DNA of 64,000 bases from Dehalococcoidia bacterium. GTDB lineage: Bacteria; Chloroflexota; Dehalococcoidia; Lucifugimonadales; UBA1127. The DNA is taken from the NCBI GenBank assembly GCA_965261405.1, contig CBDHDD010000002.1, positions 499,395-563,394 of the forward strand, read 5' to 3'. Under the pieces are notes generated by a model. The model was not told the DNA's origin, ran no database searches, and was given only the letters and a program-made list of their open reading frames with translations. A program made the translations under genes and the position numbers. Shown here piece by piece: positions 10,657 to 38,425 of the stretch. Each line of letters starts with the position of its first letter. Within the stretch, counting starts at the first letter, position 1.

Positions 10657-12849
10657 TCACGAGAGCGCGACCACTAGGTCATTCAGAACTCGCAAGATAC
10701 TAGATGATCCTTTGCCTTCAGGCCAGAGTGTACGCGCTGTCTTGGGTCGGAGTTGGCTAATCCGATTCGTTGCTGCATGGGCGGATGATCGCCAGCATAT
10801 GACGAAAACGTCGGCATTGCGCGCAAGTTCGTCCAACTGCGGACTGGCCACCTTGTCGTAGCTCAGCCGGACCACAACCCCAGGATAGAGTTGCTCTACT
10901 AGTAGACGCACACGGTCGCCGACTGACTCATTGAGCGTGTGAACGGCAATAGTCTTTCCGATTAGCCATTGGCGTTGTGGAATATCTTCAGGTTGTCGTT
11001 CGGGCTCAGGAAACAGGTCAGGCATCCCGAAAAGCGCAGCAAGCTGATTGGCTAGAGCCCTCTCACCCTTCGAAAAGCGAGTCTCGATTGGTGCAAGGGC
11101 TCCGTAGGTGCGACTCCACAATCCCTGTCTGGCCTCGGGATCGGGGCAAGCGTGAGTAACAGCCAATTCGGTAAGATCCAGCAAGCTTTCGATGTCGGAG
11201 GCTCCCGCTTCCTGCGGGATTACCGAACGCAGTCCATTAAGCAGGCTCCTGTACTGATTTTGATTGGGACCGAGTTCAAGCAACCCATCCAACAAGACCA
11301 TGGCGGCGCTCACTGCCTCGCGTCGCCACCCTGAACTCAGCAGCAACGTGAGGAGTTCGTAAACCGTGATATACAGGGGCGCAGCTGGGGGGAAGGGCCA
11401 ACGCGGGTCGGATCTTACCCAAGACACAATGAAGGGCAACGTGTCGAATAGCGTATCCTCCGCAAAAGGAGGCACCCCATTAATGGCCTCCGATATGCGA
11501 ATCGCGTCTCCCTCTGCGCTGAGTTGATCCGCTACCGGCCACTCATGAACAGCATTTGCGGCCCACGCGCGCACTTCCGCCGTTGGGGCCTCTGTTAGCG
11601 TATTCAGCCATTGAATCCAAGAACGAGGGACAGTATCCACCCCCACTCTGTCGCGCAAATCGTCGTAGACAGCTCGATAAGCTCGGTTCTCAAGCAGGCT
11701 GCGTCTTTTCTCCTCCGGTAGCCGGCCCACGTAGTCAAGAGCGAGTTGAGACGATACAGAGTCCTCCAGCGGCATTGCGGTTAACATTCTCGCGATTGCG
11801 GCCTCCACAGTCGCGACCGCGCCGTCATCTTCGAGCACAGCCATCGGGTTCGCGACGTCTGCAGCCCTAGCTCGTAGCTCTCCGGCACTTATCTCTATCA
11901 AATTCTCGAGAAACTCCGCGTCCCCCGTAGCCCACTCAGCAGCTGCTTCCTTCAGCGAATCCAGCGCCGCCAAATTGATTGGACTCATAGAGAGCGCATT
12001 CAGAGCGAACGCCTTGCCAGCGGCCGGACTTGGCTGCAAAGGTCGCCTTGTAAACAGACTGCCTGAGTTACCGTAGATTTCCCTTTTGAAGAGTTCCAGG
12101 GCCCCGGCAGTATCTCCATCCAACTCCGCAGAACGAATTGTCGTTTGGTAAAGAGCCTCCGCCATCGCGTTCGTGACCGCAGACGAACGGCGCACCTGGC
12201 ATAGCGCCGAGAAGAATTCGAGACCGCGCAGTTGTTCCCACTCCTTGAATTCAGCGTGGAGCCTTACTGTTAAGAATCGTAGGTTCACTGCATCAATGCG
12301 GCGATTGGACGAGAGAAAGGTCAGACTGTCTTGGGCCGCGGCCCGGTCGAGCCCAGCAATAGCGAGTTCAAACGAACGCAACACCTCACCCGTTGTGCGT
12401 GGGGCTATCTCCCAGCCAGACGGCATTTCATCAAGGTGCCTAGTTAGCCTTGCAAGGGCTGACAGAGTGTACCTGCCGCGGTCCTGGTCTGCGCCCGACG
12501 TGAAACGGGTACCAATCAAACCATCTACTTCAAGCAGGGCCGCCTCAAACGGATCGCTCTCCCCGAATTCGACCGTCGCTCCTGTGAAGTCGGACACGGT
12601 AAGACCAACCGCTGAACGCAGTAACGGCACTAGTTGTCTCCACTGTGAACCGTTTGCAGCTACCGCATAGTAGACCATTCTGTCACCCACATATCGTGGG
12701 ATTATTGCACCCGGCAATCGGTCTGCTTTACACGTACGCAAGACTTGTTCAAGAAGCGCAAGCCGATCGGGTCTCACCTCTGAAGGCCAATCCAGCAAGG
12801 GGCGCAATTCCAAGTCAGCCGTCTTCCCGTTGATTAGCGGTAGAGCCAT
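10657..12849 (-). CDS. Large conserved protein at the distal end of the dpd operon; possible DpdD equivalent
   Basis: The ATG at 12849 lies 5 nt after the dpdK stop. About 730 aa, helical, with no catalytic motif seen. The C-terminal ~100 aa ('KTIAVHTL...ADVFVICWRSSAHAATNRI') resemble a DUF2325-like domain. The DpdD call rests on context only. Confidence 0.4.
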   Translation of the reverse strand: MALPLINGKTADLELRPLLDWPSEVRPDRLALLEQVLRTCKADRLPGAIIPRYVGDRMVYYAVAANGSQWRQLVPLLRSAVGLTVSDFTGATVEFGESDPFEAALLEVDGLIGTRFTSGADQDRGRYTLSALARLTRHLDEMPSGWEIAPRTTGEVLRSFELAIAGLDRAAAQDSLTFLSSNRRIDAVNLRFLTVRLHAEFKEWEQLRGLEFFSALCQVRRSSAVTNAMAEALYQTTIRSAELDGDTAGALELFKREIYGNSGSLFTRRPLQPSPAAGKAFALNALSMSPINLAALDSLKEAAAEWATGDAEFLENLIEISAGELRARAADVANPMAVLEDDGAVATVEAAIARMLTAMPLEDSVSSQLALDYVGRLPEEKRRSLLENRAYRAVYDDLRDRVGVDTVPRSWIQWLNTLTEAPTAEVRAWAANAVHEWPVADQLSAEGDAIRISEAINGVPPFAEDTLFDTLPFIVSWVRSDPRWPFPPAAPLYITVYELLTLLLSSGWRREAVSAAMVLLDGLLELGPNQNQYRSLLNGLRSVIPQEAGASDIESLLDLTELAVTHACPDPEARQGLWSRTYGALAPIETRFSKGERALANQLAALFGMPDLFPEPERQPEDIPQRQWLIGKTIAVHTLNESVGDRVRLLVEQLYPGVVVRLSYDKVASPQLDELARNADVFVICWRSSAHAATNRISQLRPKTARTLWPEGKGSSSILRVLNDLVVALS

Positions 12850-12854
12850 TCTGT

Positions 12855-13376
12855 CTACCTTTCCCCCCACCGCTCCTCTAGCACCAATCGGCGTTGAAAC
12901 ACCAATTCTGGGTCGCACCGGTAACCGAGGTATTCTTGGTTTATGTGGATACCACGAAAGGTGAAGTTCATGCTGCCGTCAATTGTGAAGTGATCGCTCA
13001 CGATTCCCTTCTCGTGAACGTCCTGCGTGCGGATAATGCGCAAGTCATCGGTTAGCAGTTCATCCTTCATGCGCTGAAGTCGATCCACGAATTCATTATT
13101 CTGCACATCATAGTTGACGATAGCTGTAATCTTCACTCCGCGCTCGACGAGAGCCCGGAGAACCGAAGATAGGCGAATCATGGTTGCGGGCCACGCAGGT
13201 ACTAGGCTCCCGAACTGGCGGGCGGTATTGTCGATTAGGTTGACATCATTGACCCAGGGTGATGAGAGCCACATCTGGGAACTCGGGCAAATCATCTCTG
13301 CGACGAAAAGCGACTGGAGAAACTCCATCGGCACCAGGTGCGATTTCTCCGCATAAATGTCCCTCGAAAGTGCCAT
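12855..13376 (-). CDS. dpdK: Single-HKD phospholipase-D-family nuclease (DpdK-like)
   Basis: HKD motif 'HEKGIVSD' followed by 'IDGSMNFT'. About 173 aa. The start is 1 nt after the dpdJ stop. Confidence 0.75.
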   Translation of the reverse strand: MALSRDIYAEKSHLVPMEFLQSLFVAEMICPSSQMWLSSPWVNDVNLIDNTARQFGSLVPAWPATMIRLSSVLRALVERGVKITAIVNYDVQNNEFVDRLQRMKDELLTDDLRIIRTQDVHEKGIVSDHFTIDGSMNFTFRGIHINQEYLGYRCDPELVFQRRLVLEERWGER

Positions 13377-13377
13377 C

Positions 13378-16300
13378 CTAAAACACCTCCCGTATCGCAA
13401 ATGTTACACCTGTTCCTATCTCATTCCGGTCCACATTCACCACAACTGGATATAGGAGCATATAGTTTATCTCAATAGGTTCAGCCAACAGCGGGAATAG
13501 GCTCGCCGCAAGTTGTCCTTCCTCCCCATGTGTTGCATGGAGTGACGCCGAGCCGGCCTTCGCAAGAGCACCGGCCAAATCGGCCTCCCACGACGGAGAG
13601 CCAAAATCGATCAGTTCAGGCCTGCCAACCAACACTAGATCCCGAATCAAACTCGGGTCTGTAAACCCCACACTCCTAAACGGCTCGGCAGACTGGTAAA
13701 TGCGCTCCCTAGCCTCGGCTGTTCGTTGCCACAGCAGTCCGCTTATTACGTTCGCCGACTCCGCGAAACCCAGGTTTACAGATGTGTGGACCTGGATCAA
13801 TTGCCTGACCCGTGGCCCTAGCTCCGAGTGCAGCGACACTACCAAGCTGAACAGCCGTAGGTTTAACGCAAGACCCAATTCCTCTTCCCAATAACGCCAA
13901 GACCGCAACAGATCTGCGAGAAGTGCATCGGTTGCAGCATCTACGCCAGCACGAAGCAGCCTATGGCTAAGAGCTCCCTTAAGCTCCTCTCCCATGGCAA
14001 ATCCACGTCGGGACATTGCCTTGAAGAGATCGGCCATCGCAGAAATTCGGGCTTCGTGGTCATCCCTGCCTCTTACTTTAGCAACGCGAGAGGCAAGATC
14101 TTCATCTTCTTCTAGCAATAGGACGAACCGTTCGAGATCCTGGGCAACTACTTCAATTGCGTCAGGAGCCACGGAGGCTTCGAGTGATCGCAAGAATCGA
14201 CGCGGGTCCGCAGTTACTGTCTCCGACAGAGCCTCGATAACGCCGGCGCCTCCCAAGGTCGACTCGGTAATCCAGATTTCCCCATCTGGGGAATTGTTTG
14301 GGATACCCCGTGACAAATCTAGAAGTAAGGCCCCCTCTGGGGTGTGGTAGGGCACCGAGTCGTATGTTGCCGCGAGCAGCGCCTCTCCCAATGTCTCATG
14401 GACGCAAGCATACAGCCATGATGCCCAATCCGCCTCGTTTGGTTCCCATAGGCTGGGAGCAAGCTGCGCCAACCGGGTGACAACTGTCGGATTGGCAAGG
14501 AGCCGTTGCCAGCTTTGCTGCTCGTCTTCGCTTCTGTCCTCTTGTCCCATAACCGTGTCGTTGGTATCAAGATCAGCGAATTGTGCAGCGGTGTGAAATA
14601 GCTGGTCGGCAAGGCCCCTTTCGAGAACGACGCGAAGCGCGACGCTGAGAGTGAGGTTCTCCCCTATAGCCGTTTTAACAAGTGTGGCGACCAAGAACTG
14701 GCATAACCAATCTCGTTGAAAGGAATTGGTCAGGGACTGAAGCGCCTTGTCGCTTTGAATCAAGTAATTAAAGTATGCCATCTGCCAGGAGCGGAGATTA
14801 GAAGATTGCGCCGCATGGCTGGCCAGAGTCTCAGCGGTCGGCAAAGCAAGAGGAACAAAAAGTGCGTCAGTCTCTAGCTCGAACCCTAGCGCAGCTTGCG
14901 AGCCATCCGCCTCGGTGTAGATTGTCCTTACTTGGAATTCTCCGTTCGCCGGCGCTGGCGTCTTCACCGATGCGATCGCGCTGGTCGCGAAACGCCTAAC
15001 CGTTGCTGGTGCCTGCAGAGAATGCGTATGGAAGTTGATGCTAGGGATCAGGTTACCCCATGTTGGATCGTGCGCGAAAGCGAGCGATATCGGATTACCC
15101 TGAGGGAGGATATGTGTGCTCCAGACCTGCCAGGCGTTTGAGGTGGGTCTGACCCGCCGGTCCTCGATTCTCTGCAGAGCCACCCGCCAGGGTCGATAAC
15201 ACCTCACCTCTCCAACAGTGCCATCATCCTGGCGGATAGGCACTAGGCCGACAATCTCCGCCTCTTCCGCATACTCCCCTATAGCAAGAGGATAGTCGCC
15301 ATCCGCCAGGGGGACTGGCACCCAGTGATTAAGCCTTCCCCGCTCAGGGGCGAACCGCCTAGTGACACGGCCTGGGGTCAACTGGCTGATGGCCTGACTG
15401 ATAGCCATTGACTCAAACTTCTCAACGTGTTGAGTCGTCGCCGGCGGTATCCGTATCGTTACTTCCGGGAGATTCAGATCACTGAAAAGATTGGGAGGCA
15501 AGAATTCTGGCAGAGGACGGATTCCTTCTACATGGCGGTCGAGCGCGTTACTACCGGCGAGTGTCGGGTGCATTGCCCAGTTCGTTTGGAGCCTCCTAGC
15601 CAACGTCGGCAGAACTTCTAGCATGAGCCCACGTGGGGTTCCCCATAGGAGTTCATCCACCTCGCGTTGTGAGTTGAGTTGCAGGGCCCACCGAATATGA
15701 TTGGCGAGGTCCTTTCGACGCGCGCCGTCGTTTGTTAAGACGTCTTCAATCACTTCCTTCAAGATTGACTGCTGCTCTTGACCTCGGTGCCAGCGAGCGG
15801 CCTCAGGGCCGCTCGCCGGTTGCCACCACCAGCCCCTCGCCGACCGGTTCCTTGCCGCAAGCCAGTCCAAGAAGGCGAATGCGGCCTGCATCCTGAGCAC
15901 GTAGCGATTCTGAATCGGCAGCGCCTGCGGGCGGAGTGTCGGGTCGAATAGTTGATCATAGGTTTGGAAAGTCTGGCGGTCGCGCCCATAATCGGAAAGG
16001 ACTGTGACGGTCCATGGACGCATAGACTCCGTTCGTCCTGCCCGCCCTTTCCTTTGCACGAAAGAAGCCAGAGTCTTAGGGCTCTTGTGTTGAATTACCC
16101 CGCCAACCGTAGCGTCGTTGAAGCCCACTTCCAAGGCCGAGGTTGCAACAAGTACATCACTCGTCACATCGACGCCTCTGTCCTGAGCGGATACCCGACC
16201 AACACCCAAGCGCCGGGTGAGTGGCCGCCCGATCTGCTCCACCGCACGCCAGCGCTGTCCAACTCGATCCTTCATGCCGCTGGAAAGGCCCTCCTCCGGC

Positions 16301-17904
16301 CCGCGGAGGGCGGCGAGCGGCTCGCGAGTCCAATCTGGCTGTCCGAATATGGTCTGAGCTTCAGCATCCCTCAAGAAGTCAAATAGCCGGTTGGTGGAAT
16401 CAAGGTCATCGGTGAAGACGAAGACTCGTTGGCCAAACCGCCCGTCAGACACAGAATTCACGCCAAGCGGGTCTAGCAACCGAGCCATCAGGAAGGTCGC
16501 CTGGATGGTTGCAGACAACAATTGCGTACGAGCAGCCGGGTTCCCTCTCAAGACCAATTGATACTCCATTGCCTGTGGTTCAAGTTCCTCAAGTCGAGGA
16601 GACTCTTCGGCAACCTCACTCAAACGAACACCCGTCAAATCGGAGAGGAATCTCGGCGCACCTTCCAAGGTTGCAGATAGCCCCACAAAATGTACTGGGT
16701 TGGTTCTCCCCACAGCATTACGCCACCGTCGGAGCACAAAAGCCATCTGAGCGCCGCTCGTTCCTCCGTAGGTGTGCACCTCGTCCAAGAGAACCAAACG
16801 AGCTCGCCTGGCTGGGTTGTCGGCAACTCCGATAACATGCCGCATCGAAGTGTCAGAGAGCCGCCGGTTCAGCATTTCCCCCGTTGTGAACACAAAGTCC
16901 GGGGGTTCATGACGAGCACGCTCCCGAGTTAGCACGACCTCCTCTGGGCCAACCGCGCCGCCACACTTCTTGGCGCAGAATAGTCGCTCCATCCTCCGGC
17001 CAATATCATTAAGACTCCAAATCATCTCCGCGCCACATTGGGAGCAAGAAAGAAATGGGCAAACGAATCCCTCTCCCTGCAAGACCCAATTCGCTCTCCT
17101 CACCGACTCCGGCGTTGAATCGTTGGGAGTCATGCCGAAGTAGGTGCCAATGAGAAACGGCCGCCGACCGAAGGAGGAAAGGGCAGTTCCTGTAAGGGAC
17201 AACAGTTGATAGGCCTGAGCGAACTGGTCCTTAAGTAATTCCACCCTTGGGTAAATGGCCAGAGCCTTTACCCAATGATCATTCGGAGCCAATAGGTCCG
17301 CCAATTTGATGGATGCCGGAAGGTAAAATGCCAATGTCTTCCCCGAACCAGTTCCCGAGGTCAAGACAGTTCCTGCGTCACGCTCCAGATTCCGCTGGAT
17401 TGTTTTCGTAGCCCGGAGTTGGAATCTCGATAGAGAAATGCCATCCAACATGGCGGTTGCCACAGCTTCCTTAAGGTCAGTCCAAGCCTCAGCGGTCTTC
17501 AACTCCGCTAAAGCGGCAACTCTCGATACCTCTCGGCGAGGGACCATGCGCGGCCTCGCGTCAATCCGATAGCCTGATACAAGATCCGGCGCACTGAGCC
17601 AATGGCGCCTGGGAAACAATTGCTTTAGCCGCAACATCAACCGGACGCCCTCACCAAAACGCGATCTGTAACGATAGCCCGCGCCATCGCGCCCCACCTC
17701 AAACAGCAACCTCTTCTCTATCAATTGTTCCACCAGTTCATCCGCCTTGCCCTCACCGCCGCCATCCCGCAAGATAGCGGTTGCCAGCCCGTCGATATCA
17801 CTCTCGCTTAGGCTTCCATCGACATAGCCCCATTTGAGCAGGCGCAGTTCGTTCTGCTCAACGTCTGTAAGTAATTTGTCTATCTTGGGACTCGTGTCGC
17901 TCAT
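13378..17904 (-). CDS. dpdJ: ~1500-aa DEAD/DEAH-box (Lhr-like) helicase (DpdJ-like)
   Basis: 'TSGTGSGKT', 'LLDEVHTYGG', 'VGLSATL', 'VQRKGRAGR'. Size and operon position match DpdJ as I recall it. Confidence 0.75.
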   Translation of the reverse strand: MSDTSPKIDKLLTDVEQNELRLLKWGYVDGSLSESDIDGLATAILRDGGGEGKADELVEQLIEKRLLFEVGRDGAGYRYRSRFGEGVRLMLRLKQLFPRRHWLSAPDLVSGYRIDARPRMVPRREVSRVAALAELKTAEAWTDLKEAVATAMLDGISLSRFQLRATKTIQRNLERDAGTVLTSGTGSGKTLAFYLPASIKLADLLAPNDHWVKALAIYPRVELLKDQFAQAYQLLSLTGTALSSFGRRPFLIGTYFGMTPNDSTPESVRRANWVLQGEGFVCPFLSCSQCGAEMIWSLNDIGRRMERLFCAKKCGGAVGPEEVVLTRERARHEPPDFVFTTGEMLNRRLSDTSMRHVIGVADNPARRARLVLLDEVHTYGGTSGAQMAFVLRRWRNAVGRTNPVHFVGLSATLEGAPRFLSDLTGVRLSEVAEESPRLEELEPQAMEYQLVLRGNPAARTQLLSATIQATFLMARLLDPLGVNSVSDGRFGQRVFVFTDDLDSTNRLFDFLRDAEAQTIFGQPDWTREPLAALRGPEEGLSSGMKDRVGQRWRAVEQIGRPLTRRLGVGRVSAQDRGVDVTSDVLVATSALEVGFNDATVGGVIQHKSPKTLASFVQRKGRAGRTESMRPWTVTVLSDYGRDRQTFQTYDQLFDPTLRPQALPIQNRYVLRMQAAFAFLDWLAARNRSARGWWWQPASGPEAARWHRGQEQQSILKEVIEDVLTNDGARRKDLANHIRWALQLNSQREVDELLWGTPRGLMLEVLPTLARRLQTNWAMHPTLAGSNALDRHVEGIRPLPEFLPPNLFSDLNLPEVTIRIPPATTQHVEKFESMAISQAISQLTPGRVTRRFAPERGRLNHWVPVPLADGDYPLAIGEYAEEAEIVGLVPIRQDDGTVGEVRCYRPWRVALQRIEDRRVRPTSNAWQVWSTHILPQGNPISLAFAHDPTWGNLIPSINFHTHSLQAPATVRRFATSAIASVKTPAPANGEFQVRTIYTEADGSQAALGFELETDALFVPLALPTAETLASHAAQSSNLRSWQMAYFNYLIQSDKALQSLTNSFQRDWLCQFLVATLVKTAIGENLTLSVALRVVLERGLADQLFHTAAQFADLDTNDTVMGQEDRSEDEQQSWQRLLANPTVVTRLAQLAPSLWEPNEADWASWLYACVHETLGEALLAATYDSVPYHTPEGALLLDLSRGIPNNSPDGEIWITESTLGGAGVIEALSETVTADPRRFLRSLEASVAPDAIEVVAQDLERFVLLLEEDEDLASRVAKVRGRDDHEARISAMADLFKAMSRRGFAMGEELKGALSHRLLRAGVDAATDALLADLLRSWRYWEEELGLALNLRLFSLVVSLHSELGPRVRQLIQVHTSVNLGFAESANVISGLLWQRTAEARERIYQSAEPFRSVGFTDPSLIRDLVLVGRPELIDFGSPSWEADLAGALAKAGSASLHATHGEEGQLAASLFPLLAEPIEINYMLLYPVVVNVDRNEIGTGVTFAIREVF

Positions 17905-18608
17905 CTATTCCTCTTCCACGACATTACGATAATCTCGGTTAGTTCATTTTGAGCAAGCCAAGCCCCAGCCTCTGCGGTGAGGTTCGCAAGGGTCGCTGTA
18001 CCGTCGCTGATAGCCTCAAGTAACTCTTGGACGAACAACGGCACATCGGGCACATGATCGCGCAACTTTTTCATTTCTTCAGCGAGAGCAGCTGGCCGAT
18101 CCATTGTCTGTTCCGTAATAGGGGACTCCTCAAGCCTGTCAAACTCAGCTTCACGTTCGCGAATTTCCCTCACGACATGCTCGTAGACCGGGGATCCACT
18201 GAGAAGACGCAACAGTCCCTCGCTTGATTCGGGACGGAAAGAGGCGACGTATTCAACCCACGCCTTCTTGATCGACGCGTTTAGCGAACTAGACAACCGC
18301 TGTAGCTCCCCTTTCACTTCAAAACGCCATTTGGGGTTCGGTTCAGTAATACTTGCACGTTCCCGCTCATAGTCCGCAGCAATCTCTTTGATAGTATCCC
18401 TTAGGTCTATGACTCCTCCCGGAATAGAAACCGAGATGCCTCTTTTCCTAAATTCCCCTATCCGTGCCGTGGCGAGTCTGATAGAACTGGCCGGCCCATT
18501 GAGTTCAGTCGCACGTTCTTCAAATTGTTTAGCCTTCCAGGTGTCTACGTCGCTTTCCGCAAGATCCTTGATTCGAGCAGAGAGTTGATCTAGTTCTTCA
18601 ACAAACAA
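17901..18608 (-). CDS. dpdI: ~235-aa coiled-coil protein in the DpdI position
   Basis: Charged, helical sequence with no enzymatic motif. The stop overlaps the dpdJ start by 4 nt. Assigned by size and synteny only. Confidence 0.45.
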   Translation of the reverse strand: MFVEELDQLSARIKDLAESDVDTWKAKQFEERATELNGPASSIRLATARIGEFRKRGISVSIPGGVIDLRDTIKEIAADYERERASITEPNPKWRFEVKGELQRLSSSLNASIKKAWVEYVASFRPESSEGLLRLLSGSPVYEHVVREIREREAEFDRLEESPITEQTMDRPAALAEEMKKLRDHVPDVPLFVQELLEAISDGTATLANLTAEAGAWLAQNELTEIIVMSWKRNR

Positions 18609-18620
18609 TCTAACCTCCCA

Positions 18621-21600
18621 CTATTCCCTAGCGGGCTCCGCTAGTAACTGCAAATCTTCCAATAGTGAGTCCAGTGACTCCTTAATCTCTGACTGGTGAT
18701 GTTGTACAGCGATGTTACCAACTGAGCGCTCCTGTTCTCGCTGGGTCAAGCTACGGGTCAATTCTGAGGCGAATCGGTTGCCAGCATCGATAAAATCGCG
18801 AGCACCGGCGGTAGCATTTCTACCTCTATCACGCCCTAATTCTCTCAGACGGTTTTCGGGATTTGTCTCTTGGCTAAGCGAGTGCGCTGTTCGCACTGCG
18901 TCGTCCAGTTGCAACCCTTCTAGCCTCGTGATCGCCTCCTCGAAGTTTCTTCGTAGAGTCGCCTGGTGCGGTATAGACTTTGCGACTGCAAGGTCGACAA
19001 GCGCGCGGGCACTGTCCAAGAGCGATTTTCGAGTTGTTCCTACATCGACGTGTGCTCGCCACCACGGAAGCCATTCTGTCTTTGCCTCCCACTCTCGTCG
19101 TGCGGACACAGGCAGTTGTAAGGCGACTTCACTGTGGAGTGTGGCGATTGCCTCGTATTCCTGAAACAGCCTTTTCCCTGCTGACGGAGCCGCCGACAGT
19201 TGCCATCCTTGAGGAAGGGCTCGCAGGGCCTTGATGATTGAGGCCGGTCGGAGAAAGGGGCTGGCTACTCCTCCCTTACTCGCCGTGGTCCAACCCAACA
19301 CCGTTTCCTGAATCTTCGAACGTTGACGTTCCAGTCTCTTATGAAGGTTTTGCCACTCTGCTGACTGTCCCACATCGCGAGGCCATTCCTCGAACAGCGC
19401 GTTTAGTATCTCTGCAATCGTTGGGTTAGTACGCGCCGGACGTCCGGCTAGGGCAGCGCCAACGGCGAGCAATTCAACCCCGGTAGACACTACGTCGATG
19501 CAATGCATAGGATCGGAAAGTGCACGTATCTGCCTGACAACCTCGCTCGACCATCGATCTAGAGATGTGCCAAGAGCACGCAAGCGTTGTCCGCCGCCGG
19601 GGAAGGCCCAGGTACTTTGCTCCCGGTAAAACTCCAACCCTTCCAAGGCAACCGCAGCCTGGATTAACTCATCTGGATCGTCATCCATCGGAATGCGAAG
19701 CATCACTGGCCGTTGAGCGACCTGAACTGTCTGTCTGACAAAACTGATGCTGTCTGGACGGAAGGGCATTCCTGATCCTGCCCATCGGGTCCTTAGGATT
19801 CCCTCGCTATCCCAGTCTATATGGCTCACTATGGCCTCAAATAGCATGGGACGGACGGAGTTCAGCAAATTGTCCCTGATGGAAGCGCCGTTGCCCCAAT
19901 CAGCTATCCCGGATCGACGCCAGGAAGACGGTTCGTCGTCCGGCCCTGGGGGCTCGCCTTCAGGCGGGTTTTCCGGTGGATCTAAGCCTCCGATCTCTGG
20001 CTTGCCCACACCAAATGCTTCGTAGAGGCCGGAAGGTTCGTCAACGAACCTTCCGGGGGCACTCGTCGCCCAAAATCCTAGAATCCCTACCTGTTGGCTA
20101 GCTTGACCAGGAGACTGCCTGCTCAATTCCTGAGCCAAAGCAGGCGGAACTTGGTGCCCCCCCATGCGTTCCAGGAAGCGGGCAGTCGGAAATATTCCCT
20201 CCTCAATGTCTCGCGCAAAGAGATCTAGTGTTGTTGCCAGTACATTTTGGACGAGGAATCGAGGATTGAATCTGTAGTCGAACGCCGGGTCGCTTCGTCG
20301 CAAGGCGTTGAGTAGCGCATTTCGGTTGAAAGGATACAGTCCCTGATCCTCCGATTCTCCGAATGCAGCATGACACTCTGAGCGAAAGTCACAGGATTCG
20401 CAGGCGTTCGGAGGTAGGTTAGAACCCGCATCGTTGTGAGTTGCCCACTCCGTCAAGCTCTCCCAATCAAGTCGCGCAGCATTGAGATACCGTGCAGCAA
20501 AACCGACTACGGCCTCGTCCTTCGCTGTCGCCTCTTCGCCGAAAGTCATCAAATCTGTATGAATAACCTGCAAAACTCTGGTCTTCACCGTTTCGGGGAT
20601 ATTGGCAGTGTAGTATCCGGTCGTCACAGCTCCAGCCCAGCGGAGTCGGCACAATCCCTTATCGTCATCAGGTCTGCCCTCGTCTAAGAGAGCATCGAAC
20701 AACGCACCGCTGAGTCCTTGACTCAATGCCATGTCTTCGAACAACAGAATCAATTCCTTCTTTTGCGCAGCAAGATACCGACGCACCTCTTGAATCAGGT
20801 TAACTAGACGTTCCGCGCTAAGTCCTACGACCCTTGAGATTGCAGCGTCGAGGTTACGATTGAGGATCTCAATCGCCATCAGTTGCACCTGTTGGTCAAT
20901 GTTCAGTTGAAACATGATTTGCTGTGCTGGATTCGACATCTTCGCAACGTCGGCCATTGAACTCGGAAGATCGCTTAGACGGAACTCCCAGTTCGGCTCC
21001 ACTTCGCTTCCATACATCGTGGGCGGACTCAGCACATGGTCCACAACATGTTGCAACATTGGATGATCCGCCCAAAATTCCATATAGACAAATGGGTCGG
21101 CCAACAAATCCGGTAAGCCCCTGATCAAGGCGTCCTCGAGGTCCTGACCATTCTCCTTGGTGGCGCGAGAACCTCTTATGACAGCGGCAAGGCTGAGAAC
21201 CAGCGCGTACTTCAGGTCCTCCCGTGTCACGTACTCACGGCCAGCCTTCTCGAGTTCATCTCGGTACGGGCGCGCATCCTCCTTCGGGAGCAAGGCCAGG
21301 ATAGCTTCGATGATTCCTCGAAGGCCCACCCCTGTGCGTGGAATTGCTATGACCTGACGGCTCTTGTCGTCAGGTATGTTCAATTGCATCCATTTGACGA
21401 AATGGGACTTCCCGGAACCCGACTCTCCAAGAATCATGACTTGAACGTGATTCCTTGCCGGCGAGAGAAACTCATCCAAGAACTGCCTGGGGTGCACGAT
21501 CTCCTTGGGGACAGCGGCAACGTCCCCGACAACCGGGCCTGAAATCCGAAGTGGAAATTCGCTGTGGATAGCCAAGAATACCGCACGGTCAGCAAGCTCA

Positions 21601-21665
21601 GCGTTAGTATTCATCACGCTGTGAACTCGATCAGGGTCCCAGCAGAGATATTTTCCAAAAGTCAT
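18621..21665 (-). CDS. dpdH: ~1010-aa P-loop NTPase in the DpdH position
   Basis: Walker A 'LGESGSGKSH' and Walker-B-like 'LILLFEDMA'. The preferred start is 21665 (ATGA overlap with the dpdG stop). Assigned by size and synteny. Confidence 0.5.
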   Translation of the reverse strand: MTFGKYLCWDPDRVHSVMNTNAELADRAVFLAIHSEFPLRISGPVVGDVAAVPKEIVHPRQFLDEFLSPARNHVQVMILGESGSGKSHFVKWMQLNIPDDKSRQVIAIPRTGVGLRGIIEAILALLPKEDARPYRDELEKAGREYVTREDLKYALVLSLAAVIRGSRATKENGQDLEDALIRGLPDLLADPFVYMEFWADHPMLQHVVDHVLSPPTMYGSEVEPNWEFRLSDLPSSMADVAKMSNPAQQIMFQLNIDQQVQLMAIEILNRNLDAAISRVVGLSAERLVNLIQEVRRYLAAQKKELILLFEDMALSQGLSGALFDALLDEGRPDDDKGLCRLRWAGAVTTGYYTANIPETVKTRVLQVIHTDLMTFGEEATAKDEAVVGFAARYLNAARLDWESLTEWATHNDAGSNLPPNACESCDFRSECHAAFGESEDQGLYPFNRNALLNALRRSDPAFDYRFNPRFLVQNVLATTLDLFARDIEEGIFPTARFLERMGGHQVPPALAQELSRQSPGQASQQVGILGFWATSAPGRFVDEPSGLYEAFGVGKPEIGGLDPPENPPEGEPPGPDDEPSSWRRSGIADWGNGASIRDNLLNSVRPMLFEAIVSHIDWDSEGILRTRWAGSGMPFRPDSISFVRQTVQVAQRPVMLRIPMDDDPDELIQAAVALEGLEFYREQSTWAFPGGGQRLRALGTSLDRWSSEVVRQIRALSDPMHCIDVVSTGVELLAVGAALAGRPARTNPTIAEILNALFEEWPRDVGQSAEWQNLHKRLERQRSKIQETVLGWTTASKGGVASPFLRPASIIKALRALPQGWQLSAAPSAGKRLFQEYEAIATLHSEVALQLPVSARREWEAKTEWLPWWRAHVDVGTTRKSLLDSARALVDLAVAKSIPHQATLRRNFEEAITRLEGLQLDDAVRTAHSLSQETNPENRLRELGRDRGRNATAGARDFIDAGNRFASELTRSLTQREQERSVGNIAVQHHQSEIKESLDSLLEDLQLLAEPARE

Positions 21666-22543
21666 CAGTGGCCACCAATCCAAGTTAGGTGACTTACGGG
21701 CCTTGCCGTTGTACCGTCGTCCAGTTCCATTGATGGCGCATCTGATAGATTCTCTAACCTGAGTTCGCTGGATTGCTCCAACTGCAAGAAAGCAAGGCTC
21801 AATGAACGGGATATCGTCGTTGGCCTTCGAGGATTGGCCAATCGGGCGTCAATTTCAGTGCGTGCTGTGCCCCCATCAATCAAAGGAAGACTCTCCGCCA
21901 GCAGGCGAAGCGTTTCGGCCACCGGGGTTTGCTCCACAAGGCTGGCGACCCTTCCCAAATGGCGTCTCACCGCCTCTGTCGGATCCACCACTACCACCTC
22001 ACGGGAAGAACCCCTAGCAGTCTTCAGCCGCCAAGCGAATCCCAGGTGTCTCGCCCAGTAGATGAACTGTTGACTGCGGGCTTCGTCAGTCAAATCTAGG
22101 GGCGATCCGCAGTCATCCTCCACCTCGCTTCGAAGCCCACCCTGCCAGGGAAGCGGGTCAAGAGGGTCTCGAGTCAGCAACCACGCCAATGCCTTGCACA
22201 CCCTGGCCTGCCGATTCCCATCAGCCAGTTGAGGTTGGACAATCTGGTCCTCAAGAAAGTGGAACTTCTGACTGCTAGTCATTCGCCTGACCTGGTCTGT
22301 CAACATGAAGCGGCCCTCGTCCCCTGACACAACGACATGAAGATTTCTGAGCTCTGAGAGCACCTCCGGCAGAATCGCACCTTGGCGGTCCGGATCGTCG
22401 TCTCTTCGCACTCTGGAAAGGGACGGTGGAGTAACTTGACTTGCGATTTCTGCTTGCGTCATACCTTTCGATGATCCATCAAGGAGTTCCCAAACGGCAT
22501 ACAGCCGATTTGGAGTAGCCGTTACAGATGTAACTACGCTCAT
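21665..22543 (-). CDS. dpdG: ~290-aa protein in the DpdG position
   Basis: No motif recognised. ATGA-type overlaps with both neighbours. Assigned by size and synteny only. Confidence 0.45.
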   Translation of the reverse strand: MSVVTSVTATPNRLYAVWELLDGSSKGMTQAEIASQVTPPSLSRVRRDDDPDRQGAILPEVLSELRNLHVVVSGDEGRFMLTDQVRRMTSSQKFHFLEDQIVQPQLADGNRQARVCKALAWLLTRDPLDPLPWQGGLRSEVEDDCGSPLDLTDEARSQQFIYWARHLGFAWRLKTARGSSREVVVVDPTEAVRRHLGRVASLVEQTPVAETLRLLAESLPLIDGGTARTEIDARLANPRRPTTISRSLSLAFLQLEQSSELRLENLSDAPSMELDDGTTARPVSHLTWIGGH

Positions 22544-25152
22544 TGGGACATCCTCCCCACAAAAAATGCAACATCAAGTTTCCGCCCCTCAAACCCATCC
22601 TGCAGCCTGCGGTCCGGACGATCCGGATCCATGGCATCAGCATGCAGGAACAGAAAATGTGAAGAACCCGGCGGCCTTACCCTCAGCAACAGGGTGGTAA
22701 CCAACGCTTCCCTGCCGAGAATCACGCCAGTGTGTCCCTGCGGAAGAGAATTGGGTGGTAGGTCAGCAGAATGGAAGAGGGGCCAAGCACGAGCCACCTT
22801 CTGAATGTCAGCCGCAGTGATAAGTGCATCTGGAGGGATGATCCAGTTCCAAACGCCACATGACACAAGCTTAGCTAAGGCTTCAATCCAACGTCTGGTT
22901 CGACGGACATCGCCCATGTCCTCGTCGCTGTAGAATATTACTGTGCGATTTCCACGGCCCAAAACACTACGAGCGGTATTGTCAATCTCCCTCTCAAATG
23001 GCCAAGCAAAGGCAGTATTTCGAGCGTGTTCAGTCAGTTTAGCTCTCCCGGCGGAGCGGCAATCTGGGCATCCCGCGCAGGCCGTCGCCACATGAACAGC
23101 CCTATGGCTGGTTTGATAGCTGTGAGAATTCACCTCAATCTCATAAATCGGGGCCAATAAATCCGCTATACAGTTGCCGCCTCGGAGCAATTGAACCATT
23201 CGCTGGAAATTAGTCCGATTGCTCCCGACTAGCCGCTCTCTCAGGGGAGAAACGACTTCCTGCCAATGCTCAATGCTAGGGTGCATCGGGTCGTCAAGTC
23301 GAACTCGTTGATACTGTTGGAAGAGATTGCTCCCAATCTCATCAAGTTCTTCCTCCTCACCTGAAGTCTCTTCAATTGACTTCATGGTTTCGTTATCAGG
23401 TCCGAGCAATCGAATCATCTTCGCGTTGGCCATAAGTGTTAGGGTTCTGATATGCCATTCCGTGTTCAGGTCACCGCCCATGTCCTGTCGTCCATTGCCA
23501 ACCCCTGGAGGGACATCAACAGCCAACCTAAATACATTATTCCCTTCATAGGAACTTCTCTTGTGATTGATCATCGATTGCCAACGATTGATGGCCCTTT
23601 CGATGGTAAGCAACTGCGGCCGGTTGAGCGAACGTGCGATTCCAACGTCGCGTTCAGTGGGAATGATAACTGATGCAGTTCCACCGCCATCACGACCTCC
23701 CCTTCCAACTTCTTGGTAGAAGCGATCTAGCGTCTCTGGAACACATGCATGCACGACGCATCTTACGTTTGGATTGTCAATCCCCAGCCCAAAGGCCGAC
23801 GTGCCAACAACCAGATCGAGCGTTCCTTCTCTCCAACCATGAATCACATTGTGTCGGTCGGAGGCACTGCTTTTGCCAGTCATCAATCCGATGCGCCTAA
23901 ATCCTTGGCCGTGTAGCAACTCATACCATTTGTGCGCTTTTTCTACTTCCGTTGCGTAGAGGATGGCCGGACGCGGCATGTGTAACACAGTTTCAAGAAC
24001 TCGCTCACGCTGCACCACACCGGAGATCTCTGGCGAAACCCAATACTCTATCTCCGGACGCAATTGGACAGCCGATAGGAAGTTCAATCCAAGATCCCCT
24101 CCGTCGGCAAACAACGCACGAAGGGTCTCTATCGTTGTTGTAGTCATGGTCGCCGAGAGAAGAAGCGTTTTGGGCGCCCGGTTCGAAGGCGATGCTTCAA
24201 TTAGTTCGGCGCGCACTCCACTCAGTGCTTGGAATGATGCACGGAAGTTCGCGCCCCATGCGTCGACTAGATGCGCTTCGTCAATGACAATTGCTCGTAA
24301 GAAGCCTACCCGTGCAGCGTGGAGGAGAGCTGGGTGCAGGGTAGTACAAACAGCCTCGGGGGAAGAAAAGCATAAACCTTGCGTGCCCATCCGTATCCTA
24401 TCAAGCATCTGGTGGCGTTCCTCCGCCGACACGCCACTGGTATAGGCAAGCCTATGACTCCCAAACCCCAAGTCTCTAGCGGCAATCGCATGGTCTTCCG
24501 CTAGGGCGCTGGTCGGCGTGACGACTAGCGTTACGCCCGGAACTCCGAGATCGGTTTCCAGTGCAGCCAGCAACTGGAATACAAAGCTCTTGCCGTCGCC
24601 AGTCGGAAGTGTGATGGCCAGCGAAGCGCCTGGCGGTGTCATGAAAGCAGCCCGAACGGCAGAACGTTGACCTCTGGTTTGGTAGCTATCCCGGTGGAGC
24701 AATGACAGAAAAGGATCGCCAGGCACCCTATCATAGGTGCGCCTAGTCGCCTCGCCGGCTGCGTGGCCGTCCACACCTCGATCCGGCACGTCCTGGAGCC
24801 ACGTCGGTCTCCATGGTGTTGCTTGCAGAAGCACCGAATCCTTACCTGCCTGCGTGTGTACGCCAGTAAGCCTCCAGTGGTTCAGGCTTGGCCAACCATC
24901 TTTGACGGGGACGCTGAGTTGTGCATCCGCTCCGGTAGTCTCTTGCTGGAAGCGGAGGACCTGCCGAACCAAGATCGCAAGGTCGATGGGTGATGGACGA
25001 TCGAGAGCGCCCTCCCTTAGTGCTGCTACCGCGCGCATCAATCTATTAAGGCTCGGATAGGCCGTATGAGAAAACTCCTCAGCTGCCAACACTTGATGAC
25101 TCAGAGCCTCGAAAGCCGCCAACCCTTCAAGTCCTGACCGCTGATACATCAT
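22540..25152 (-). CDS. dpdF: RecQ-like DEAD/DEAH helicase (DpdF-like)
   Basis: 'LPTGDGKSFVFQL', 'VIDEAHLVDAWG', 'LLSATMT', 'GTSAFGLGIDNPNVRCVVH...FYQEVGRGGRDG'. Confidence 0.7.
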   Translation of the reverse strand: MMYQRSGLEGLAAFEALSHQVLAAEEFSHTAYPSLNRLMRAVAALREGALDRPSPIDLAILVRQVLRFQQETTGADAQLSVPVKDGWPSLNHWRLTGVHTQAGKDSVLLQATPWRPTWLQDVPDRGVDGHAAGEATRRTYDRVPGDPFLSLLHRDSYQTRGQRSAVRAAFMTPPGASLAITLPTGDGKSFVFQLLAALETDLGVPGVTLVVTPTSALAEDHAIAARDLGFGSHRLAYTSGVSAEERHQMLDRIRMGTQGLCFSSPEAVCTTLHPALLHAARVGFLRAIVIDEAHLVDAWGANFRASFQALSGVRAELIEASPSNRAPKTLLLSATMTTTTIETLRALFADGGDLGLNFLSAVQLRPEIEYWVSPEISGVVQRERVLETVLHMPRPAILYATEVEKAHKWYELLHGQGFRRIGLMTGKSSASDRHNVIHGWREGTLDLVVGTSAFGLGIDNPNVRCVVHACVPETLDRFYQEVGRGGRDGGGTASVIIPTERDVGIARSLNRPQLLTIERAINRWQSMINHKRSSYEGNNVFRLAVDVPPGVGNGRQDMGGDLNTEWHIRTLTLMANAKMIRLLGPDNETMKSIEETSGEEEELDEIGSNLFQQYQRVRLDDPMHPSIEHWQEVVSPLRERLVGSNRTNFQRMVQLLRGGNCIADLLAPIYEIEVNSHSYQTSHRAVHVATACAGCPDCRSAGRAKLTEHARNTAFAWPFEREIDNTARSVLGRGNRTVIFYSDEDMGDVRRTRRWIEALAKLVSCGVWNWIIPPDALITAADIQKVARAWPLFHSADLPPNSLPQGHTGVILGREALVTTLLLRVRPPGSSHFLFLHADAMDPDRPDRRLQDGFEGRKLDVAFFVGRMSQ

Positions 25153-27269
25153 TCGAAGTCCTCAGATGAATGATCGTCGGTCTCGAGTTCGTACGCATTC
25201 GGTGGTGAGTTCGAGACTACGAACAGACCCATGGCATCAAGTCTTATGGTCGCCTGCCTGATTGCCTCCATCAACAACGCATTCACTTGCAAGTCGACGT
25301 CAATTGAAGAGCCAGCCGCGTCCCCAGTCTTCCTAGTTGCTAGTCGATCGTTGTCTGCAGCCAGAGCGCCCAGGGCATGTGCTACAACTCGATTCTTCCA
25401 AGATTGATGCTCTGTAGAATTCCCCACTAGCACTTGACCTGTTTCACGCGTGCGATAGACTGCCTCTTGGAACGCGCCAGGCTCGATTATTCGAAACAGC
25501 GACTCCCGCCGACTGCCGAGATTATAGTCCCGGCCCGCGTGGCCTCCGACGGTCGAATAACCGCGCTTAAGAATCCTCTGCAAGAGATCGTCGTTGATCG
25601 GCGATCCGTCCAAACCGACGTCAATCAGCATTGTCCAAGGAGGCAGAAGAGCGTCGAGACGACGCTGGATCGCGAATTCATCAATGTTGTCAGGCAGCAT
25701 AGTAGTCTCTCTCTGGATCGTAGACGCTTCGGCCTGAACGACATAGCTCAAACGGAATCCTAGCCAACGGCCCCAGCGTTCAGAATCCCACTCGGGATCC
25801 ACGCGCCAGGTCGCGAACGCGATGCCCCGGTCGTCCCACCGAAGGAATCTCTCCACAGCGTCGACGAGATGCATCCCCGGCCGCACGAGCCGTATCCCTG
25901 GGACAGTTGTTGCAATCGATCGCAGGTAAGTCAGATTGGACCCAAAGATAGAAGGATCGAACAATTCGCTCCAGGGTTCCTTTGGAAGCAGTGTTCGCTC
26001 TGACCACCCGAGACTGAATACTCCACGCCGTGACATCGAGTCGATGGGGCGGAACTTGAGGGTGCCGACCAGGAATCTCTGGAGCGGCTGGAAGCGTCGT
26101 GCCTCGTCGGCCGCGTCTAAGCACTCGAACAGCAGGTTCGCGTCATCGTCGGCCATCGCTCGGGAGTCAAGCGCATATTCCTCATCGAGGCGTTGGCGCT
26201 CACCGGCGATTTGACTACTCAAGGCCTCCATGATCTCGGTCAGCCCCTGTGCACCTCGCCGAAACAGCGCCAATTCAACCTGGCCACGCAAGTCATCAAG
26301 CAAAAACTGTAGTTCTGAAATCGACTCGTCGAACACATGGAACGTATCACGTATCGCCTCGAACCACGCCATCCACGGGTTTGGACCCTGACAATACGGC
26401 ACCACCACCCATTGGGGGATTTTGTCGCCAAACCTATGTCGGCCAAAGCGGTCAACCCTGCCAATGCGCTGCTCGATGCGCGCTGCGTCCACGGGGAGGT
26501 CGGCATGCACGATTGCCGTTGCAAATTGGAGGTTCAGTCCTTCCTCCGCACGTCGATCGCCAACCAGCACGGCATCGCGTGGAGATACACGGAATCCTTC
26601 CACCGCCCGAGCAATTTCGTCCTCAGTCGATTGCTCGGTTACCTTGAACACTGTCTCGTGCCCACACTCTTCCACAGCGTTGCTCAGTGAACTACCGAAC
26701 TGGCTGGATGAGGTCATCGCGACTACCTTTGCTGGCTCTTCGTCAGTACGTGTGCGGAGCGCCGCGCTGTGGACGACAGTGGCAACCAACTGCTCCCGAT
26801 TCCCGGCTGTCTCTTCTCGAAAGGCCTCTAGGGCCAGCCGCAATTCTCTCGATTCTCCCTCGAAGCATTCAGCATTCCTTTGCATTTCACTAAGGAGCCT
26901 CTCGCACTCTTCGGGGCTTTGGCCCAAAGTCTCTAGCATCAAGGCGTGTCTGTGAACAAGTACTCTTTCCAGCGCTTCATCAGGGTTCTCTACTAGGTAT
27001 TCGACTGCGGTCTGTCGCCAAGAATCCAATGCGTCGGCCATAAGAGGACTTCGCTCATCGTCGTCTTCTTCAGGCGTCACGTCACCTCGGCGAGGAACGA
27101 GCACCCATTCTGGCAAGTCGCGTCTCCTGGTTCTGACGAGTCGTTGATGAAGGCGATAAGTATCAGCGATATGGTGCCGTAGTCGAATGATAAGACTTGT
27201 TGCCTCGGGGATGTCCTTTTCAATTGCTTCACTCAAACTTCGCACTTCTTTAATCATCCGGGAATGCAC
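25149..27269 (-). CDS. dpdE: SNF2-family helicase, C-terminal (RecA2) half plus a long C-terminal region (DpdE-like, second polypeptide)
   Basis: 'VLVGDRRAEEGLNLQ' and 'HADLPVDAARIEQRIGRVDRFGR' (SNF2 motifs V/VI). GTG at 27269 or ATG at 27257. It overlaps the upstream ORF's stop. Confidence 0.65.
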   Translation of the reverse strand: MHSRMIKEVRSLSEAIEKDIPEATSLIIRLRHHIADTYRLHQRLVRTRRRDLPEWVLVPRRGDVTPEEDDDERSPLMADALDSWRQTAVEYLVENPDEALERVLVHRHALMLETLGQSPEECERLLSEMQRNAECFEGESRELRLALEAFREETAGNREQLVATVVHSAALRTRTDEEPAKVVAMTSSSQFGSSLSNAVEECGHETVFKVTEQSTEDEIARAVEGFRVSPRDAVLVGDRRAEEGLNLQFATAIVHADLPVDAARIEQRIGRVDRFGRHRFGDKIPQWVVVPYCQGPNPWMAWFEAIRDTFHVFDESISELQFLLDDLRGQVELALFRRGAQGLTEIMEALSSQIAGERQRLDEEYALDSRAMADDDANLLFECLDAADEARRFQPLQRFLVGTLKFRPIDSMSRRGVFSLGWSERTLLPKEPWSELFDPSIFGSNLTYLRSIATTVPGIRLVRPGMHLVDAVERFLRWDDRGIAFATWRVDPEWDSERWGRWLGFRLSYVVQAEASTIQRETTMLPDNIDEFAIQRRLDALLPPWTMLIDVGLDGSPINDDLLQRILKRGYSTVGGHAGRDYNLGSRRESLFRIIEPGAFQEAVYRTRETGQVLVGNSTEHQSWKNRVVAHALGALAADNDRLATRKTGDAAGSSIDVDLQVNALLMEAIRQATIRLDAMGLFVVSNSPPNAYELETDDHSSEDFE

Positions 27270-28353
27270 TTCTGATTTTCGCCAAAGTGTTTAGCAAGAA
27301 TGGTGCCGGTAAGCTGGGACTCAGAGCCAAGAGAAGGCGACCGTATTCTTGCCGCCTGCGAACACGATCAGCGAATTCGTCGCGCGCTTCGAAAGGATAT
27401 CCCGTTGGATCCAACAAGTGTAAGAGTGCCAAAAGAAGGTCTTCGTCGCCAAGCGTTGGAGTAGCTGATATCAGAAGCACTCGTGAGGCCAATCGTGTTA
27501 GTTCTTCAAGATGACGATATTCTTCATTTGCCCAGGCATTCTCAGGGATGAGATGATGAGCTTCATCGATAACCAAAGAGTCGACTTCTCCCGGCACGAG
27601 TTGCTTCAACTCCTCATGGGTCAGAATCGTTACGTTAGAACTCGTGAGAAAGAACCGGTCTCTCAGTTCTCTTACCCACTGCCCAAGGAGGGTGGCCGGA
27701 ACTAGGATTCCGACCCTCTCTGTCGGATTGTCGATGACTGCCTGGCGTACAATCGCACCGGCTTCAATCGTCTTGCCGAGGCCCACCTCGTCCGCTAATA
27801 AATAACGTTGGATAGGATCCTGCAAGATGCGCCGAACTACCTGAATCTGATGGGGGAGTAGTTCAACGGACGCCGACAGGAGTCCGGTCAACCCATGCCC
27901 AGCAGCCCTACTATTGGTGATGCATTCAAGCGCGCCCTGGCGGGCGTCGAAGAAATATTGAGTCTCCATGCCACCGTTAGCGAGAATAGCGGCGGGGTCG
28001 TCAACAGGCAATAGGCAACGCACGTGTAAGTGCCGTTCAGGTATCCTATGACTCAACCGATTTGGGAACTGGATATCATATGCTATCTGCCCCCCACCAT
28101 CGAGAGTCGAACCCACGAAATAATCAACGACACGTCCCACCATCCAGTGCCCCGCACCACTCTCGACATATACCCGAGTCTGCGGACTAAGATATGCTCG
28201 CCTAATCTGCTGTGCCGGGTACACTAGATCGAATGTCCGGGAAGGAGACCTGAAAAACCGGACCGTGGCCTGTTCCTCATCTGAATCTACTAACCGCCCA
28301 ATACCATTCTGATCAAGTGTCCAAACGAACTCACCATTCCTAAGCCGAACCAT
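27250..28353 (-). CDS. dpdE: SNF2-family helicase, N-terminal domain plus RecA1 lobe (DpdE-like, first polypeptide)
   Basis: 'LLPHQIQVV', 'LLADEVGLGKTIEAG', 'LVIDEAHHL', 'LLISATP'. It ends at the TAA at 27250-27252. Confidence 0.65.
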   Translation of the reverse strand: MVRLRNGEFVWTLDQNGIGRLVDSDEEQATVRFFRSPSRTFDLVYPAQQIRRAYLSPQTRVYVESGAGHWMVGRVVDYFVGSTLDGGGQIAYDIQFPNRLSHRIPERHLHVRCLLPVDDPAAILANGGMETQYFFDARQGALECITNSRAAGHGLTGLLSASVELLPHQIQVVRRILQDPIQRYLLADEVGLGKTIEAGAIVRQAVIDNPTERVGILVPATLLGQWVRELRDRFFLTSSNVTILTHEELKQLVPGEVDSLVIDEAHHLIPENAWANEEYRHLEELTRLASRVLLISATPTLGDEDLLLALLHLLDPTGYPFEARDEFADRVRRRQEYGRLLLALSPSLPAPFLLNTLAKIRSAFPDD

Positions 28354-38330: not shown

Positions 38331-38425
38331 GGAGGGCAGAAAGTTGACCCGGCGATGCGACAAACATCCCGGGCCGTGGCGCCACCCGCGGGTAGCAGGT
38401 GATGCAAAGGCATTGTACCACCCGC

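Follow-up and report, generated by a model that had tools for sequence, protein, structure and literature searches.

Is a SNF2-type ATPase that is spread over two overlapping open reading frames (ORFs) a natural two-subunit enzyme, or is it the product of a single gene that has been interrupted? The question is raised by the dpdE locus in a stretch of 64,000 nucleotides (nt), here called the window, from a Dehalococcoidia bacterium of the Chloroflexota (assembly GCA_965261405.1, contig CBDHDD010000002.1, positions 499,395 to 563,394). DpdE is the SNF2/RapA-like ATPase of the Dpd restriction module, and an earlier note on this DNA had left two readings side by side, a natural two-subunit variant with translational coupling or a recent frameshift that inactivates restriction while modification persists. 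Both the gene and the system are known, and what splits the gene is an ordinary frameshift of one base, which arose either by a very recent mutation or through an error of assembly. On balance, we think that it is probably a genuine and very recent insertion of one T into an ordinary single-chain dpdE.

Two ORFs that together appear to form one dpdE gene

The ORFs, their motifs, their overlap, and the stop codon upstream of the second ORF were all found where the earlier note had placed them. The N-terminal ORF encodes a protein ending in ...LAKIRSAFPDD, followed by a TAA stop codon, and contains motifs I (DEVGLGKT), II (DEAH, within DEAHH), and III (SAT, within SATP). In the C-terminal ORF motif VI (QRIGRVDRFGR) is present, and its product would comprise 706 amino acids (aa) if translation started at the GTG at 27269 or 702 aa if it started at the ATG at 27257. 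Counted from these two codons, the overlap with the N-terminal ORF amounts to 20 or 8 nt (ATGATTAA), respectively, and the frame of the C-terminal ORF is closed upstream by a TAA, the eighth codon before the GTG. Across the two ORFs, SNF2-type ATPase motifs of both RecA lobes are present, and the motif residues correspond to invariant columns (G191/G193/K194/T195, D263/E264, and Q631/R632/R635/D637/R638).

Comparison with the NCBIfam profile for DpdE (NF041062, length 1048) assigns positions 1-365 to the N-terminal ORF (424 bits) and positions 370-1047 to the C-terminal ORF (444 bits). Each ORF alone stays below the cutoff of 500 bits, whereas their summed score of about 868 bits covers the whole profile, and the PADLOC models for DpdE give the same picture of two halves. 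Judged from these matches, which go far beyond chance, the two ORFs seem to be collinear, abutting halves of DpdE. The locus as a whole would thus be a DpdE gene, although neither product appears to qualify as DpdE by itself. A single polypeptide of about 1040-1130 aa is not encoded because of the TAA at 27252-27250 and the change into the +1 frame, and in NCBI/ENA-derived data the 367-aa and 702-aa fragments (the latter from the ATG at 27257) are stored as separate proteins. That DpdE is normally one protein of about 1000 aa, which the earlier note had stated, agrees with the profile length of 1048 and with homologs of 1040-1130 aa.

One additional T separates the two frames

The closest relative is an intact DpdE of 1070 aa (P0122) encoded on a metagenomic contig (ENA ERZ25071132:ctg802635_5x_l; L001), and this protein shares a 90%-identity cluster with both fragments from the window. 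Over the intact gene of 3213 nt, the dpdE DNA of window and L001 is 96.2% identical in a pairwise alignment, with only two indels. One of them lies at the junction of the two ORFs, where L001 reads GATGATAAAG and the window reads GATGATTAAAG; in aligned form, CCGGATGA-TAAAG of L001 stands opposite CCGGATGATTAAAG of the window. The extra T at 27252/27253 is the sole frame-breaking indel in dpdE, and it creates the TAA stop codon and shifts the rest of the gene into the +1 frame. Where the window has TT, L001 has a single T and hence one ORF of 1070 aa, and its protein runs uninterrupted across the junction (...AFPDDKVVRSLSEAIEKD..., in a longer stretch ...AKIRSAFPDDKVVRSLSEAIEKD...). The second indel is a 9-nt difference that leaves the frame unharmed, L001 possessing three additional codons at the site equivalent to about position 26867 of the window.

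The earlier note had proposed to align single-chain homologs across the junction. In such an alignment, deletion of one T restores a continuous frame reading FPDDKEVRSL, which fits 29 aligned homologs with zero residues gained or lost. D367, the last residue of the N-terminal fragment, is invariant in an alignment of 58 sequences. The two genomic regions are also alike beyond dpdE. The downstream genes dpdF to dpdJ are common to both, with identical lengths for dpdF, dpdG, dpdI, and dpdJ, and the upstream queE and the region of an IS30 remnant are found in L001 as well, whereas a 1.1-kb insert of the window (31403-32539) is absent from L001.

Nearly all DpdE homologs are single-chain proteins

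Among the best non-self homologs of the fused DpdE, 113 of 119 are single chains of 1025-1300 aa that cover at least 95% of the query. When the N-terminal half was used as query in an exhaustive HMMER search, 121 of the 150 representatives had at least 950 aa, and the 29 shorter ones were scattered between 325 and 846 aa without a peak at 367. For two of the shorter matches, P0088 and P0117, the clusters include full-length members too, and P0128 (394 aa), the short homolog of nearest length that was examined, owes its length to an independent frameshift about 25 codons downstream. This broken dpdE, 50% identical, occurs on a contig labelled 2x (ENA ERZ25072196:ctg142146_2x_l, positions 1422-4659; L002), where it lies directly downstream of a DndB-family gene and is divided at about residue 392 into ORFs of 394 and 657 aa. 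In these metagenome assemblies, dpdE calls that are split turn up repeatedly and amount to noise.

None of the homologs examined has the same two-ORF arrangement with conserved termini, and the one other split that was examined, that of L002, is at a different codon. The natural two-subunit variant with translational coupling, one of the two readings of the earlier note, is ruled out by the intact relative with 96.2% identity, the single-chain homologs, the lack of shared termini, and the missing ribosome-binding site of the Shine-Dalgarno (SD) type. The split is almost certainly a one-off insertion of a single base and not an evolved division of the gene.

Age of the frameshift

Between window and L001, the pairwise ratio of nonsynonymous to synonymous substitution rates (dN/dS) is 0.17 for the N-terminal and 0.36 for the C-terminal half of dpdE, compared with 0.18-0.52 for dpdF to dpdJ. 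With three outgroups (61-66% identical), 3+17 derived amino acid changes are assigned to the lineage of the window and 2+14 to the intact lineage. Over about 20 kb, nine of the ten indels whose length is not a multiple of three are non-coding or intergenic, and the T in dpdE is the only coding one. By these measures dpdE is free of any sign of decay, and long-standing decay as a pseudogene is ruled out by a dN/dS below 1 like that of the neighbours, by the symmetric derived changes, and by the lack of further lesions; drift as a pseudogene over the whole divergence would be expected to have left several indels in the 3.2 kb of dpdE. Since there is neither decay nor another coding indel, the frameshift is either very recent or not real. 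The recent frameshift considered in the earlier note is supported by the one-T difference from an intact relative, its recency following from the absence of decay.

Genuine mutation or assembly error

The sequence of events that we favour would be as follows. Before the insertion of one T at 27252/27253, the dpdE of this Chloroflexota genome would have been an ordinary gene of about 1067 codons for a single chain. The T turned GAT GAT AAA into GAT GAT TAA A, so that a stop codon was made and the remaining 700 codons were moved into the +1 frame. Translation would now stop after residue 367 and yield a fragment consisting of RecA lobe 1 and half of a helical insert. The 3′ part, devoid of a ribosome-binding site, would give at most a low-level product by re-initiation at an ATG 5 nt upstream of the stop. 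The ATPase activity of DpdE would be lost or strongly reduced, and Dpd restriction would probably be lost with it. The lesion would be very young and is taken as a genuine strain-specific mutation.

In its form, the locus resembles the frameshift pseudogenes and split gene calls of bacterial genomes and metagenome-assembled genomes (MAGs), with which it shares the single-base indel, two abutting ORFs, a second ORF without ribosome-binding site, and intact close relatives. Nothing distinguishes it from them, the sole coincidence being that the new stop codon overlaps an in-frame ATG (ATGATTAA).

The most serious competitor, possible in our view although less likely, is that the dpdE of the organism is intact and that the extra T entered the deposited contig (1.86 Mb) as an error of the consensus. 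A difference of one single base from a gene that is otherwise 96% identical and intact, together with two halves of which neither has decayed, is what such an error would produce. Moreover, related metagenome assemblies repeatedly contain dpdE calls with a frameshift or in fragments, and the organism is an uncultured-type member of the Chloroflexota, its NadB having the best match (88% identical) in a Chloroflexota MAG, so that the genome of the window may itself be metagenome-assembled or a long-read assembly. However, the change is from T to TT and not within a long homopolymer, other large genes of the window, for example those for NadB, NadA, and DpdJ, match their profiles end to end, and with nine of ten frame-changing indels in non-coding DNA, both assemblies appear indel-accurate in the roughly 16 kb that code for protein. 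Real differences that were filtered by selection, and recorded in two indel-accurate assemblies, would be expected to leave just this pattern. Because of this pattern and the T-to-TT context, a genuine mutation is moderately favoured over an assembly error.

Several points weigh against a genuine loss-of-function mutation. A single residual consensus error is a live alternative since the comparison was one between assemblies, and the related contigs are low-coverage metagenome assemblies in which split dpdE recurs (L002 and the clusters of P0117 and P0088). The absence of decay would fit an artefact or a still-functional split equally well. With the ATG placed 5 nt before the stop (ATGATTAA), the geometry is compatible with termination-reinitiation, and the C-terminal fragment may be made. 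Finally, the cut is predicted to lie in a surface loop, and the loss of function of a DpdE cut there is presumed. Further samples of the allele were sought in two collections. A search of the GTDB representative genomes with the intact protein gave no relative, so that neither the genome of the window nor a close relative belongs to the species representatives. An exact-pattern scan for the junction, with either T or TT permitted, in metagenome contigs of the Joint Genome Institute (JGI) gave no match and thus no independent sample that would confirm or deny the TT allele.

Translation signals at the junction

For five genes of the operon, namely the N-terminal ORF of dpdE, dpdF, dpdG, dpdI, and dpdJ, a GGAGG/GAGGA-type site precedes the start at a distance of 6-12 nt, and the ATG at 28353, with which the N-terminal ORF starts, has the SD-like GGGA..GAGAG upstream. 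In contrast to these five genes, no SD-like sequence exists within 20 nt upstream of either the GTG at 27269 or the ATG at 27257. To judge from these signals, the second ORF does not seem to be shaped as a gene, and the C-terminal fragment could be translated only if ribosomes terminated and re-initiated at the ATGATTAA overlap, which is fortuitous.

A functional two-piece DpdE, in which the frameshift is real and the C-terminal fragment made in this way reassembles non-covalently with the N-terminal one as an incipient gene fission, is considered improbable. The ATG, placed 5 nt before the stop, speaks for it, as does an operon that already uses ATGA-type coupling (dpdE/F, F/G, and I/J; the start of dpdF, with its SD sequence GAGGA, overlaps the stop of dpdE). 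The break in a short inter-helix loop, outside the elements of secondary structure, would also suit such a reassembly, and neither half has another lesion, the dN/dS being below 1 for both. However, the pairwise dN/dS reflects mostly the history before the frameshift and hence is no proof of selection on the split state. In addition, the second ORF lacks an SD sequence, the break bisects a helical domain instead of falling on a domain boundary, and the arrangement is found in no ortholog. That some function remains in two pieces, through termination-reinitiation at ATGATTAA, is unlikely.

Programmed +1 ribosomal frameshifting or transcriptional slippage, by which full-length DpdE would be made as a regulatory device, has next to no probability, although a shift at or before the TAA would restore the exact ancestral protein length: sequence context and non-conservation rule it out, since at the junction GAU-UAA-A the P-site GAU is unable to re-pair in +1 (AUU), there is neither an upstream SD-like stimulator nor a homopolymer for slippage, and the closest ortholog and all others are in one frame, so that the site is unconserved, unlike known programmed +1 sites, e.g., that of prfB, which are conserved.

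Position of the break in the modelled DpdE structure and its likely consequences

Under a genuine frameshift, the consequences for the enzyme depend on where the chain is cut. An AlphaFold2 model of the intact ortholog (predicted local distance difference test score 89.5, predicted template modelling score 0.87) places the last strand of RecA lobe 1 at residues 291-295 (motif III), an all-helical insert at about 298-404, and the strands of RecA lobe 2 at 545-654. In this model the break corresponds to a four-residue loop (364-367) between the helices 350-363 and 368-379. The earlier description of a split between the two RecA lobes is topologically correct, but the break falls inside the helical insert and not at a domain boundary. 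According to the model, the lobes would be separated by the break, yet the helical insert is bisected rather than a boundary between domains being cut. A 367-aa product without lobe 2 could not be expected to hydrolyse ATP productively, and DpdE would be inactive unless the C-terminal fragment were efficiently made and reassembled.

The best match of the intact ortholog to a known enzyme, in sequence (E about 6e-29) and among folds of the PDB (Foldseek E 7e-39; template modelling score 0.52-0.64), is E. coli RapA (HepA; PDB 6BOG, 8T0L, 4S20), a bacterial Swi2/Snf2 ATPase. The likeness extends over the overall multi-domain architecture, and in a phmmer alignment the break in dpdE corresponds to about residue 385 of RapA. 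However, identity is only about 20%, and membership in the RapA family is not claimed, NF003426 giving 138 bits against a cutoff of 576; RapA also differs in that it acts on RNA polymerase and outside any defence island.

In Salmonella, DpdD to DpdK confer restriction and DpdA, DpdB, and DpdC modification, the roles of the individual restriction proteins being unknown (PMC10164549; PMC5699537). On the specific role or structure of DpdE, the literature yielded only this DpdD-K restriction phenotype and the label SNF2-like. It is nevertheless reasonable to assume from the interrupted sequence that Dpd restriction is probably lost in this strain.

For annotation, the two ORFs should be treated as one frameshifted dpdE, either a pseudogene or a gene to be corrected, and not as two proteins that are helicase fragments. 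If the mutation is real, the locus presents a Dpd island whose restriction arm has probably just been disabled while everything else is intact, which is a common fate of costly defence systems, and it would offer a mildly useful natural dpdE-null strain for comparison with an intact sister lineage. If instead the two pieces function together, the locus would be a snapshot of the first step in the fission of a SNF2 ATPase into two subunits. Nothing new is learned about the workings of the SNF2 enzyme or of Dpd restriction, and the importance of the case beyond a correction of annotation is small.

Gene content of the Dpd island

The dpdE locus heads an operon on the minus strand with the order dpdE-F-G-H-I-J-K-D, followed by queC, and all of the downstream genes except the weakly matching dpdI score above their curated cutoffs (Table 1). 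On the plus strand, genes for a YhhQ-type preQ0 transporter, DpdA, a UvrD-like helicase, and a PD-(D/E)XK nuclease are encoded, and queE is located upstream of dpdE. The gene at the position of dpdI has no match among the PADLOC models; with its length and position kept in L001, it seems to be a divergent dpdI. As far as profile matches allow a judgement, the rest of the Dpd restriction operon appears intact.

Table 1. Coordinates of the dpdE locus, its two differences from the intact ortholog, and the other dpd genes of the window.
Feature	Position	Strand	Remarks
Whole dpdE locus, interrupted by +1-nt frameshift	25149..28353	-	SNF2/RapA-like ATPase, Dpd restriction module; covered by NF041062 and PADLOC DpdE over two ORFs
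dpdE 5′ fragment	27250..28353	-	367 codons and TAA at 27252-27250; N-terminal beta domains, RecA lobe 1, first half of helical insert
dpdE 3′ fragment, +1 frame	25149..27269	-	Rest of helical insert, RecA lobe 2, C-terminal domains
TT dinucleotide, one T inserted	27252..27253	-	Intact ortholog GAT GAT AAA G; window GAT GAT TAA AG
9-nt in-frame indel relative to L001	26867..26868	-	Window without 3 codons (CDE of ...AECDESFEG...); frame unharmed
dpdF, intact	22540..25152	-	870 aa; NF041063, 778 bits (cutoff 550); same length in L001
dpdG, intact	21665..22543	-	292 aa; NF041064, 114 bits (cutoff 80)
dpdH, intact	18621..21683	-	1014-1020 aa; NF041065, 590 bits (cutoff 450)
dpdI-like	17901..18608	-	235 aa; NF041066, 28 bits (under cutoff 150); 235-aa gene in same place in L001
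dpdJ, intact	13378..17904	-	1508 aa; NF041067, 1565 bits (cutoff 800)
dpdK (PLD-like), intact	12855..13400	-	NF041068, 173 bits (cutoff 100)
dpdD, intact	10657..12918	-	753 aa; NF041061, 432 bits (cutoff 300)
dpdA, DNA-guanine transglycosylase	4088..5806	+	572 aa; NF041059, 332 bits (cutoff 200), aa 161-564

The cluster resembles dpdA-K of Salmonella Montevideo in the combined match of its two dpdE ORFs to the DpdE profile (NF041062), which is collinear and full-length, in the SNF2 motifs, and in a dpdE that heads a dpdE-F-G-H-I-J-K-D operon beside dpdA, queC, queE, and a YhhQ-type transporter gene. It differs from that system in the dpdE that is cut by a 1-nt insertion into ORFs of 367 and about 702 aa, in that no DpdB-like gene was detected, and in a DpdA with a DUF6884 N-terminal extension. 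Residues 7-137 of the dpdA product match Pfam DUF6884 (PF21818) nearly end to end with 25.7 bits, which is under the gathering score of 30. DUF6884 is listed as the domain of DpdC (preprint 10.1101/2025.02.24.639861), and this dpdA ORF may encode a DpdC-DpdA fusion; no family named DpdC was assigned to it in the NCBIfam and PADLOC scans.

The places usually occupied by dpdB and dpdC are taken by the genes for the UvrD-like helicase (5803-8154) and the PD-(D/E)XK nuclease (8157-9338). Within the island (3000-32500), a tblastn search with a single query, the DndB-family protein of L002, gave no DpdB/DndB-like gene, the DpdB profile not having been run across the ORFs. In Salmonella, DpdB with its ATPase is required for insertion of preQ0 (PMC10164549), so that base insertion by the cluster of the window may follow another route or be absent. 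Since the search gave no DpdB-like gene to accompany DpdA, it seems doubtful that DNA modification persists here.

Surroundings of the island

The island (about 3-32 kb) has a G+C content of 52-57%, compared with 61-67% in its flanks. Scans of the whole window against Rfam and for tRNAs found nothing. At 28694-29319 on the plus strand, the last 85 or so positions of an IS30 transposase profile are matched by two short ORFs that differ in frame (E 1e-4 and 5e-10) and form a decayed IS30 remnant between queE and the promoter region of dpdE; the identification is from NCBIfam at a relaxed threshold, the ORFs having no Pfam match at E ≤ 0.001. L001 aligns over this region, where it has a gene at 8854-9585, so that the remnant appears common to both and older than the dpdE frameshift.

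The 1.1-kb segment at 31403-32539 that is missing from L001 lies between queD/queE and a TPR gene. By eye, its minus strand encodes a ribbon-helix-helix-like protein (31774-32238) and, after it, one that resembles PIN-domain proteins (31394-31816). From these resemblances the segment is a putative VapBC-type toxin-antitoxin cassette that would have been acquired or deleted after the separation of the two lineages.

Near the start of the window, the plus strand carries a gene for an oligonucleotide cyclase of the type found in cyclic oligonucleotide-based antiphage signaling systems (CBASS; 659-1474), followed by a gene (1474-2649) whose product has domains of the GmrSD_C nuclease and Excalibur types. 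These two genes and the Dpd island mark the region as a defence-island neighbourhood. About 6 kb beyond the low-G+C island, a large serine recombinase is encoded on the plus strand (38399-40084), with CcrB/XisF-like matches far below the family cutoffs; it may serve as integrase to a larger mobile element that carries the island.

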